Below are positions 53,501 to 56,500 of a stretch of DNA of 63,193 bases, in pieces (position 1 is the first letter of the stretch; the number at the start of each line of letters is the position of its first letter). The position numbers and the translations under genes are program-made. Source of the stretch: Thermoanaerobaculia bacterium (GTDB lineage: Bacteria > Acidobacteriota > Thermoanaerobaculia > Gp7-AA8). The notes under the pieces were generated by a model, which saw only the letters and a program-made list of their open reading frames with translations, did no database searches and had not been told where the DNA came from. The stretch spans positions 1 through 63,193 of the forward strand of contig DASWMP010000008.1 of the NCBI GenBank assembly GCA_036399695.1, in the 5' to 3' direction.

Positions 53501-56500
53501 CACCTCGCCGCCGAGGACGAGCGTGCGCGCCGGGATCAGCTCCGGGGCCGTGCCGTCGCCGACGAGTGCCTGCAGGTGTGAGGGCGTGACCTTCATGCAG
53601 TCGATGCGGTGGCGGCTGCAATAGGCGGCGTAGCGGTCCGCGTCCGTCACGGTCTCGCGGTCGAGGACGTGCAGCGTGCCGCCGCCGGCCAGCGCCGGGA
53701 AGAGGACGGTGTTGCCGAGATCGGCGGCGAACGTCGAGACGAAGGCGTACGCCGTTCCCTCCGGCAGTTGCAGCTTCTGCTCGATGGCCGTGACGTAGCT
53801 GGCGAGCTGGCGGTGCTCGATCGTCACCCCCTTGGGGCGGCCGGTCGAGCCGGAGGTGTACATGACGTACGCGAGGTGCTCGGGAGTGACGAGCGATTGC
53901 AGCTCGACGCCGCTGGCCTGCAGTGCGGCGACGCGCGCCGCGATTTCCGGCCACTCGCGGTCGAGGGCGATGAGGCGCGTGCCCGCGGGGACGACGGCGC
54001 CGAGCTTGTCGAGCAGCGCCTCCTGCGTCAGGACGATCGCCGCTTTGCTGTCCTGCACCATGTACGCGAGACGGTCATCCGGATAGTCCGGGTCGAGCGG
54101 GACGTAGGCGCCGCCGGCCTGCAGGATGCCGAGTAGCGCGACGACGACGTCGAGCGAGCGCTCCATGCACAAGGCGACCAGTGCGTCCGGCGCGACGCCT
54201 TCGGCTTGCAGGTAGAGCGCGAGCTGGCGGCTGCGCGCCTGAAGCTGCTCGTACGTGACGCTGGTGTCGCCGCAGACGACGGCCGTCTGGTTCGCGCGGC
54301 GGGCGGCCTGCTCGACGAAGCGCTGATGCAGGCATTCGTCGATCGCAGGCGCCTCATTGAAAGCGGCGAGCTGGCGGCGTTCGTCTTCGCCGAGATAGTC
54401 GAGCCGGCGGAGCTCGGCGGCCGGCGCGGCGACGATGGCCCGGCAGAGCGCCACGAGGTGCGCGGCCATGCGCTCGATGGTGCCCGGCTCGTAAAGCGCC
54501 GTGCTGAACTCGAGCGAGGCGGCCAGCGCGCCGGCGCGCTCGGTGAACGCGGCCGTCAGGTCGAACTTGCTGATGCTGCTGTCGAGCGGATAGCGGGAGA
54601 ACCGCTCGCTCCAGCCCTCTTCTTCGTTCTGCAGGATGAACATCACCTGGAAGATCGGGCTGACGGCCAGGCTGCGTTGCGGGTGGAGGACGTCCACGAC
54701 ACGGTCGAACGGCGCATCCTGGTACTGGTAGGCCTCGAGGCAGGTGGCCTTCACCCGCGACAGCAGTGTGGCGAACGTCTCCTCTCCCTCGACGCGATTG
54801 CGCAGCGCGAGGGTGTTGACGAACATGCCGATGAGCCCTTCGGTCTCGGCGAAATGGCGGTTGGCGATGGGCGTGCCGACGCAGAGGTCGGTCTGGCCGG
54901 TGTAGCGGTGGAGCAGCGTCTTGAACGCCGCCAGCAGCACCATGTACAGCGTCGCGCCCTGCTCCTGAGCGATGCGCCGGAGCTGCGCCGTCAGGCCGGC
55001 GTCGAGTGTGAACGAATGCCTGGCGCCGGCGAAGCTCTGCACCGCCGGGCGGGCGTAATCGGTGGCCACCTCGAGCGACTCCGGCGCGCCGGCCAGCTTG
55101 GCCTGCCAGTACGTCAGTTGCTCGTCCAGCGCACCGCTCTCCTCGAGCCAGGTGCGTTGCCAGACGGCGTAGTCGGCGTATTGGATGGGCAACGGCGCCA
55201 GCTCGGGCTCGCGTCCCGCGGCCAGCGCGTCGACGATCGTGTCGAGCTCGCGGATCAGGACGGCCATCGACCAGCCGTCGCTGATGATGTGGTGCAGGTT
55301 CAGGTAGAGGATGTGCTCCTGCTCGGCGGTCCGGATGACCTTTGCCCGGAGCAGTGGGCCGTGGGCGAGATCGAAGGGCCGCGTGGCATCGGCTGCGAAG
55401 ATCGCCGAGTTTGGAGTGCGGCAGCGATGATTCTCCAACTGCCGCTTTCCTACAGCCGCGGCGGCGAGCCGCGGCCCCGGAGGCGGAAGCTCGACGCTTC
55501 CGCTATGTGAAAGCGGCGGCTGATGAAGCGTCGCCGCCGCACTCCAAACTTCGTCCGCGATATCGCTCAAATCGAGGGTCTCGAGGTGAAAATCGATCTT
55601 GTCGAGGATGACCTGCCGGGCCTGGCCGTCCTGCACCGGGAAGACCGTGCGCAGGTTTTCGTGCCGCGCGATCAGCAGCTTGAAAGCCTGCTCCAGTTGC
55701 TCCACATCCAGCGCGCCGCGGATGGTGAAGGCGTTCGGCAGGTTGTAGATGACGCTGCCCGGCTCCAACTGGTCGAAGAACCAGATGCGCTCCTGGGCGA
55801 AGCTGAGGGGCAGGCGGTCGAGCTGCGAGCGGTCGACCGGCGCGAGCACCGGCACGTTGCTCTGCGGCTTGGCGGCGAGCAGCTCCGCGCAGCGTGAGAC
55901 CGTCGTCCGTTCGAAGAGCGCCTTCAGCGGCAGTTCCGCGTTCAGCCGGGCCCGGACTTTGGAGATCACGCGCGTGGCCAGCAGCGAGTGGCCGCCGAGC
56001 TCGAAGAAGCTGTCGTTGACGCCGATCTCTTCGGGCGCCAGGCCGAGGACCTCCGCCCAGATCTCGGCGAGCGCCTGCTCTGTCTCGTTGCGGGGCGCCA
56101 CGTACTCGCGGCCGGAGGCGACGGCGACGTCCAGCCGCTGCAGCGCGCGGCGGTCCACCTTGCCGTTCGTGTTCAGCGGGATCGACTCCAGCCTGACGTA
56201 CGCCGCCGGGATCATGTACTCGGGGAGCGTGCGTGACAGGTGCGCGCGCAGCTCTTCGGCCGCGACGTCGCCGTTGGCGCGATAGAAGGCGATCAGTTGT
56301 TTGTGTGGCTCCTCGCCGCGGGCGATGACGACGCTCTCCTGGATGGCGTCGTACTGGGCGAGCTGCACCTCGATCTCGCCCAGCTCCACGCGGAAGCCGC
56401 GGATCTTGACCTGCGTGTCGATGCGGCCGAGGTACTGCACGGTGCCGTCGTTGCGCCAGCGCGCCAGGTCGCCCGTCTTGTACATGCGTCCGCCCGGCGT

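Follow-up and report, generated by a model that had tools for sequence, protein, structure and literature searches.

Rickettsia palindromic elements (RPEs; Ogata et al. 2000, 2002) are dispersed palindromic repeats of about 100-150 bp which, according to PMC10969869 and PMC3733652, are found repeatedly in frame within unrelated protein genes, where they are translated into additional stretches of peptide, at sites predicted to lie on the protein surface; it is from Rickettsia that in-frame palindromic repeats are already known. Repetitive extragenic palindromic (REP) sequences, taken together with BIMEs, REPINs and the GTAG- and CGTC-tagged superfamilies, are imperfect palindromes of 30-40 nt with a tag at one end, which occur as singletons, inverted dimers and clusters, mostly near the ends of open reading frames (ORFs) and with no target duplication (PMC3733652, PMC2817692). 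The survey of Di Nocera et al. (2013) already reports some REP copies inside genes, where they encode extra amino acids (PMC3733652). [quoted passage not shown] Here we describe a 143-nt hairpin element in an NRPS gene (gene B) carried by a 63,193-nt stretch of contig DASWMP010000008.1, hereafter the window. We propose, with a probability of roughly 0.85, that this hairpin is a copy of a dispersed REP-like repeat, in an inverted-doublet form resembling REPINs (REP doublets forming hairpins), which entered the coding sequence of the second condensation (C) domain, C2, with the reading frame kept. Judged from its sequence, the case would belong with the in-frame palindromic repeats and the REPs in genes already known, with a host group and a class of gene that are both new.

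The earlier note on this DNA, made from the letters alone, had called the element reminiscent of RPEs, and the likeness holds as behaviour; membership of an RPE sequence family is not claimed. As with RPEs, a palindromic repeat stands in frame with the ORF kept, here in gene B, in gene F of the same window, in a TPR protein and in a Kelch-repeat family, and a structural model predicts that the insert in C2 is compatible with the fold and lies on the surface, with a predicted local distance difference test score (pLDDT) below 50. Whereas the RPE host is an obligate intracellular alphaproteobacterium, the present host is free-living, high-GC and probably a member of the Acidobacteriota. The element also differs from RPEs in being built of two short REP-like units with a TTGGAGT tag, most copies of which are intergenic.

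The hairpin element and its position in C2

The element is bounded by AGTTTGGAGTGCGGC (55408-55422) and GCCGCACTCCAAACT (55536-55550), which are exact reverse complements over 15 nt, as had been read from the sequence before. A repeat search gave arms of 69 nt each (55408-55476 and 55482-55550), 75% complementary and separated by 5 nt. Folded as single-stranded DNA, the 143-mer reached -60.5 kcal/mol, compared to -31.6 +/- 2.8 kcal/mol for shuffled sequences (z = -10.4; 0 of 200 shuffles as good), and folded as mRNA it reached -100 kcal/mol (z = -10.6). In the minimum free energy (MFE) structure each arm contributes about 42 nt to an outer stem that encloses two small hairpins, which makes an earlier estimate of arms pairing imperfectly over about 49 nt roughly right. 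The element is made of two inverted copies of one unit, each arm being self-contained, and by direct reading the left and right units are identical at 33 of 40 positions.

The 143 nt lie within the minus-strand ORF of gene B and are translated as ..DEV WSAAATLHQPPLSHSGSVELPPPGPRLAAAAVGKRQLENHRCRTPNS AIF.., that is, as 47 2/3 codons, about 85 residues upstream of the HHIISDG motif. From the DLS strand to the PFDL motif C2 counts 62 aa, where C1, C3, C4 and C5 of the same gene count 19-22 aa; for C2 this is a net gain of 40 aa (120 nt). The earlier note had claimed an insert of about 45 aa, absent from the other four C domains, with a net gain of 120 nt and the frame kept; the absence, the net gain and the frame stand. 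The same note had derived the 120 nt from the spacing between the Ser of GGxS in the thiolation (T) domain and the first His of HHxxxDG. This difference was found again, but at 693 nt in C2 versus 573 nt in C3 and C5, not 711 versus 591 nt, and it does not extend to all other modules, as T-domain helices are partly duplicated ahead of C4, which brings the spacing there to 753 nt. The duplicate adds 63 aa between T3 and C4 (about 49112-49351; gene B aa about 3326-3390) and corresponds to the C-terminal helices of a T domain (HSALAAQLMAKLRGRL..SPLKALFENTSIDQLAELI).

We compared 63 C domains: alignment A3 sets C2 beside its paralogues C3, C4 and C5 and beside 59 homologues from the databases, and C1 was checked separately. 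The homologues were drawn from protein hits of up to about 870 aa, so that full-length orthologous synthetases may have been missed; the nearest are 55-64% identical to C2 and come mostly from metagenome-assembled genomes (MAGs) of Thermoanaerobaculia and other Acidobacteriota. The stretch from DLS to PFDL spans 19-23 aa in 60 domains, 16 aa in one, 62 aa in C2 and 49 aa in P0070, an NRPS C domain from JGI 3300048101. The insert is thus absent at this site from 62 of the 63 domains, from 58 of the 59 external homologues and from all four paralogues in gene B, which argues against an ancestral protein feature. In P0070, 28 extra residues (within residues ~425-455) occupy the same DLS/PFDL site. 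Their sequence is unrelated to the C2 insert, and back-translation of GAALRGRP and GRPRSAA within them gives an inverted repeat that is perfect over 21 nt. This suggests that P0070 carries a second palindromic insert, likewise in frame, which arose independently and belongs to another family of repeats.

The C2 domain itself appears to have kept its fold around the insert. It has the PF00668 fold with the HHxxxDG motif, its motifs including HHIISDG are intact, and its phmmer match to PDB chains splits exactly at query residues 107-163. The AlphaFold2 model, built with the loop from a 64-sequence alignment, has a mean pLDDT of 87.8 and a predicted template modelling (TM) score of 0.86, and aligns with a TM score of 0.81 to Txo2 (6p1j), while residues 118-153 fall below a pLDDT of 50. 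The modelling that had been proposed for C2 with its loop therefore keeps the C fold and leaves the insert disordered: the 47 extra residues would form a disordered excursion on the surface of the N-lobe, splitting a surface helix just before PFDL.

The base composition of the insert sets it apart from its surroundings. The 49 codons that cover the element have a G+C content at third codon positions (GC3) of 0.633, compared to a gene B mean of 0.907, which, when all 144-nt windows of the gene are ranked, falls within the lowest 0.03%. Because of this low GC3 the insert looks recent and non-coding in origin, and we infer that the insertion into C2 is fairly recent. Together with the P0070 segment, these data bear on the alternative that the loop belongs to the protein itself, as a feature either ancestral or specific to its lineage, and is palindromic by chance. 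P0070 does have extra residues at the same site, a point in its favour, but they share no sequence with the C2 loop and are themselves back-translatable into an inverted repeat; the rarity of the insert among C domains, the GC3 (0.63 versus 0.91), the low pLDDT of the loop and the match of the arms to a nucleotide family of other phyla (see below) leave this alternative largely refuted and very improbable.

Only two of the six reading frames of the element are open, and gene B uses the sole open frame on the coding strand; this choice of frame, with the frame restored downstream, fits selection for an intact product. The length of 143 nt is not divisible by 3, and the segment holds 43 nt of non-element sequence in C2 versus 63-66 nt in relatives. 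The frame would have been restored in one of two ways: either some 20-23 nt of the ancestral helix were lost, or the real unit is a 141-nt core, GTTTGGAG...CTCCAAAC, of 47 codons, in which case a separate in-frame deletion of 6-7 codons is needed. The in-gene flanks, CGGACGA and CGGCGA, are merely loosely similar and form no target-site duplication. In the course of events that we propose, a REP-like doublet would have inserted into the C2 coding sequence and been kept since it was open, in frame and on the protein surface, and copies in other frames or with unrestored frames would have been removed by selection.

Two further alternatives concern whether the element is real in the DNA and whether it reaches the protein. 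An assembly artefact, in which reads were joined through the repeat to give a chimeric insert, could be suspected as this metagenome contig ends inside another repeat copy; however, the homology to C domains runs on in an unchanged frame to either side of a single complete doublet with unique flanks, and we regard an artefact as highly improbable. Strong hairpins in coding sequence are also a feature of T4 gene 60 and of mitochondrial byp elements, and by this resemblance the element might be skipped through ribosomal bypassing or removed by RNA-level excision. Yet it is open and in frame and needs no skipping, no stop follows a take-off codon, and the sole matched flanking codons, GCG..GCG, would leave the helix about 10 residues too short, so that skipping is hardly credible.

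The repeat unit and its copies in other genomes

The unit from which the element is built has the form YTTGGAGTGCGG-stem-loop-stem-CCGCTTT, in which a 5' tag, YTTGGAGT, is followed by an 8-bp G+C stem, a loop and the closing stem. A covariance model, R2, was made from 29 units of other genomes, with no sequence from the window; the TTGGAGT tag stands directly 5' of the stem in all 29, and the middle pairs of the stem differ among copies by compensatory changes (CG, UA, GC, AU) at two to four pairs (alignments A2 and A6). When run over the 63-kb window, R2 recovered both arms of the element and both copies at the window ends (Table 1), the next best match having 17.8 bits and nothing else reaching 18 bits. 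These scores support the earlier proposal of a dispersed family, and so does the core TTGGAGTGCGG, which lies at 43-53 on the minus strand and 63164-63174 on the plus strand, as reported for the two ends of the window before.

Both of these end copies are intergenic, and each forms part of a doublet of a shorter type, 76 nt long. A 9-mer, CACCGCTCT, is present at 1-9 and again at 63185-63193, each time within the repeat copy, and the two ends, if overlapped, give a complete 76-nt doublet. A fourth, decayed copy of the short type, which the earlier note had not seen, lies in frame in gene F, the last gene in the window, downstream of gene B. Its local alignment to the short type covers the full length and scores 62, where the background is 15.3 +/- 2.9 and the best unrelated sequence reaches 31; the GC3 of this copy, 0.885, is typical of the gene, pointing to an old, assimilated insertion.

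Table 1. Positions of the repeat copies, their parts and the genes discussed in the text (R1 and R2, models of the repeat unit).
Feature	Position	Strand	Description
Composite hairpin element	55408..55550		143 nt; two inverted REP-like units and two inner hairpins; 15-nt perfect termini
Left unit of the element	55409..55450	+	GTTTGGAGTGCGGCAG-(14-nt loop)-CTGCCGCTTTCC; R2 33.7 bits, E 3.3e-6; R1 38.5 bits
Inner hairpin 1	55455..55475		GCCGCGGC-GGCGA-GCCGCGGC; from the MFE structure
Inner hairpin 2	55475..55508	+	CCGGAG-GCGGAAGC-TCGAC-GCTTCCGC-TAT; weak third, degenerate unit; R2 16.5 bits, E 0.046; from the MFE structure
Right unit of the element	55508..55549	-	GTTTGGAGTGCGGCGGCG-(loop)-GCCGCCGCTTTCA; R2 38.0 bits, E 3.1e-7
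C2 of gene B, modelled region	54377..55879	-	HHIISDG at 55274-55294; insert splits the helix that follows the DLS strand and precedes PFDL
Window-start copy	1..55 (unit 22-55)	-	Spacer and right unit; R2 38.3 bits; 26 nt downstream of the gene F stop; passes the terminator scan
Window-end copy	63162..63193	+	Left unit of a doublet; R2 29.8 bits; 8 nt upstream of the gene A ATG (63154-63152, minus strand)
Decayed doublet, short 76-nt type	16889..16964		Within gene F, in frame; encodes ..SRSVVAQQPLFDMDSSAAPAPPDSE.. in a linker with an ECH domain on either side
Gene B	41573..59326	-	5917-aa NRPS: TubC_N dock, five C-A-T modules (A, adenylation), terminal reductase; ORF uninterrupted across the insert
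Gene A	59774..63154	-	TubC_N, C and adenylation core; ends EYLGQVKL* inside motif A8; no AMP-binding_C and no T domain

We scanned one genome per species (596 Gb) with TTGGAGTGCGGYNGCG, a loose pattern for which some 60% of the listed matches are due to chance. In about 45 of the 117 matches listed the motif closes into a perfect hairpin of 6-7 bp or more, where chance would give about 0.2%. With model R1, at least 47 units (E < 1e-3) were found in 36 of 100 loci fetched by this 16-mer scan. The hosts span at least nine phyla: Acidobacteriota, Verrucomicrobiota, Planctomycetota, Armatimonadota, Chloroflexota, Sumerlaeota, Omnitrophota, Hydrogenedentota and WOR-3, with a few proteobacterial MAGs. 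Carriers of the unit include a complete genome, Bryobacterales OZ242276.1, and long acidobacterial contigs. The earlier note would have given up its mobile-element interpretation had there been no copies beyond those it had seen; units of the family occur in these phyla, besides the decayed copy in gene F. Several MAGs were matched twice among the matches listed and are therefore multi-copy genomes.

In these genomes the units occur as singletons or as inverted doublets of 60-250 nt. Most are intergenic and mostly adjoin ORF ends, in no fixed orientation to the neighbouring genes, and no target-site duplication was seen at the 13 doublets inspected by their flanks. Three copies from Thermoanaerobaculia (L054 4242-4370 and L071 3992-4027, from the same MAG, and L049 7809-7844) consist of the unit and a conserved tail, TTTGGGAGGGTGGKGGA, and their stems differ by compensatory changes (GCGGTGGC/GCCACCGC versus GCGGTAGC/GCTACCGC). 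When metagenomes were scanned with a pattern that picks out the short type, one foreign match was found, L122 (metagenome Ga0114129). In its 96-nt doublet at 431-526 the right arm is almost the same as in the window-start copy, and there is a third inner hairpin that recalls the composite build of the 143-nt element.

Set against the described classes, the repeat comes closest to REPs and REPINs. It shares with them a short imperfect palindrome whose stem-loop is conserved between copies, with compensatory changes and an R2 match in both arms, as well as the inverted doublet that folds into one long hairpin and the absence of target-site duplications. Its tag, in contrast, is GGAGT, not GTAG or CGTC, and does not fit the TIRYT motif GGGGWSAS, and the same consensus extends across at least nine phyla, whereas most REP families are species- or genus-specific. 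No flanking RAYT or TIRYT gene was seen in the RayT search (about 8 kb per genome). A MITE is suggested by the small size, the non-coding nature and the perfect 15-nt terminal inverted repeats of an element sitting in a synthetase gene, but the 13 doublets have no target-site duplication, the units also occur as singletons, which MITEs do not form, and the ORF is preserved here. Terminator-like repeats (SPRITE, paired uptake sequences) and intrinsic terminators likewise have a G+C stem followed by a short T-run, and the copy behind gene F passes a terminator scan; the orientation to neighbouring genes is inconsistent, however, and the in-gene units fail the same scan.

Three other identities were considered and rejected. 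A phage-borne element does not fit, as viral contigs hold 5 units only. The R'/R'' consensus of attC sites does not fit the unit, and there is no cassette array. The likeness of the repeat to the uptake sequence AAGTGCGGT is probably due to chance, and an uptake sequence would not explain the spread across phyla.

The family seems undescribed. Rfam searches with the element and seven loci carrying canonical units returned no family, only sub-threshold matches to long hairpins (miRNA, SRP). A full-text literature search for the core motif returned primers alone, and a search of the REP literature found no GGAGT-tagged family. By analogy with REPs, the repeat might spread through a hairpin-recognising single-strand transposase (HUH/Y1, RAYT-like) or through recombination between copies; the ORFs between paired units in loci L025, L115, L021 and L102 are housekeeping genes, not transposases.

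Several points weigh against our proposal or narrow what carries it. The loci used for the models were fetched with a pattern derived from the window, and their first 16 nt match by construction; the evidence independent of this pattern is the hairpin closure, the CCGC and the T-run alone. Units were also picked for a perfect stem, which makes the 99% pairing figure circular. E. coli RayT, used as a tblastn query, had no match at E < 0.5, either in the 119 fetched loci (about 8 kb per genome) or in the window. No near-identical translation of the 143-nt variant occurs among 5.8 billion proteins, with every open frame as query at E <= 10, and this variant may be rare or old. No empty-site orthologue of C2 closer than 64% identity is present in the searchable protein data (hits of up to about 870 aa), and the copies from the host, three full and one decayed, are those of the 63-kb window alone. 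The main caveat is one of function: the cluster may be partly rearranged and the insert simply neutral, a point to which we return below.

In-frame copies in other proteins

Apart from genes B and F, in-frame copies were found in two further kinds of protein. In L018, a locus from Thermoanaerobaculia, a 94-nt doublet at 886-979 is read in frame as VWSAAA...LPHSK within an acidic linker that has TPR Pfam hits on both sides. In L031 a doublet at 2178-2250 is translated as FGVRS..AAFKSAGMSAHSK within a 903-codon Kelch-repeat ORF, which belongs to a family of more than 3000 members with carriers in Acidobacteriota and Verrucomicrobiota. About 11 of 26 aligned Kelch orthologues have the same peptide at the same site (FGVR..AAFxSA..SAHSK). 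At the DNA level the doublet is present in L123 (1235-1305) and L124 (1151-1212), and L125 is without it. The three Kelch in-gene doublets are 83% identical by column, compared to about 60% identity for the proteins that contain them.

That the Kelch doublet DNA is better conserved than the surrounding gene hints at a constraint on the nucleic acid. On this ground it is possible, and we advance it tentatively, that YTTGGAGTGCGG-stem-loop-CCGCTTT represents an undescribed third 'tag class' of REP-like repeat, with one consensus across at least nine phyla, which has repeatedly become fixed as protein-coding sequence in free-living soil bacteria (in an NRPS domain, a polyketide synthase linker, a TPR protein and a Kelch protein); this would imply a conserved trans-acting partner or a function of the hairpin itself.

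The same observation, together with an RNA fold of -100 kcal/mol and a basal stem of about 20 bp that could slow ribosomes or attract RNase III, would agree with co-option of the hairpin in gene B, as a processing (RNase III), pausing or attenuation site in the 17.7-kb mRNA that tunes the modules downstream of module 1. As the in-gene units are not terminator-like in the scan and simple tolerance of the insert explains everything, we consider co-option improbable.

The gene cluster and the meaning of the insertion

All long ORFs of the window are on the minus strand. Its right end is the end of the contig and its left end is mid-contig, at position 57523 of the 120,715-bp record JGI 3300034139 Ga0334956_000012 (record position = window position + 57,522).

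Gene A looks like a truncated or rearranged module, and gene B opens with a second TubC_N dock similar to that of gene A. Most of the 447-bp gap between the two genes is taken up by a tandem array at 59390-59764, in which a 21-bp unit, GGAGTCAAAGCTTTGAGTCCC, is repeated 17.9 times; at the core of the unit is a palindrome, CAAAGCTTTG. Some units of the array (AAAGTTTTGAGTGCGG) resemble the TTGGAGTGCGG tag, and a period of 21 bp would put sites on one face of the helix. In C1 of gene B (about 57800-59140) the motif reads HQIVADG, with the second His of the HHxxxDG found in the other C domains replaced.

Taken together, the truncation of gene A, the 21-bp array and the HQ motif of C1 mean that the cluster may be partly rearranged. 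The earlier note had regarded the insertion as a natural tolerance test of the C-domain N-lobe; this presupposes a working synthetase, yet gene A appears truncated within its adenylation domain. The insertion would then be real but neutral, in a cluster no longer under selection, and would say nothing on the tolerance of C domains. In keeping with this, gene A lacks AMP-binding_C and a T domain and stops inside A8, the 18-copy array follows it, gene B starts with a second dock and has HQxxxDG in C1, and the insert is not adapted to the codon composition of the gene. On the other hand, gene B is uninterrupted over 5917 codons, and genes E and F are 5041 and 7462 codons long; the element uses its sole open frame with the frame restored downstream, which suggests selection for an intact product, and HHIISDG and the other C2 motifs are intact. 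On balance we find a purely neutral insert rather unlikely.

The C2 insert provides a natural example of some 47 foreign residues in the helix between the DLS strand and PFDL of a C-domain N-lobe. With the probable palindromic insert of P0070 at the same site, it marks a place in the domain that may be permissive, a candidate for the insertion of loops or tags when NRPSs are engineered. The repeat unit also explains the recurrent peptide strings FGVR.., LECG.., ..PHSK and ..AALQ in predicted proteins of phyla known mostly from metagenomes. Recognition of the repeat would improve gene calling in these phyla and could lead to the enzyme that mobilises it.

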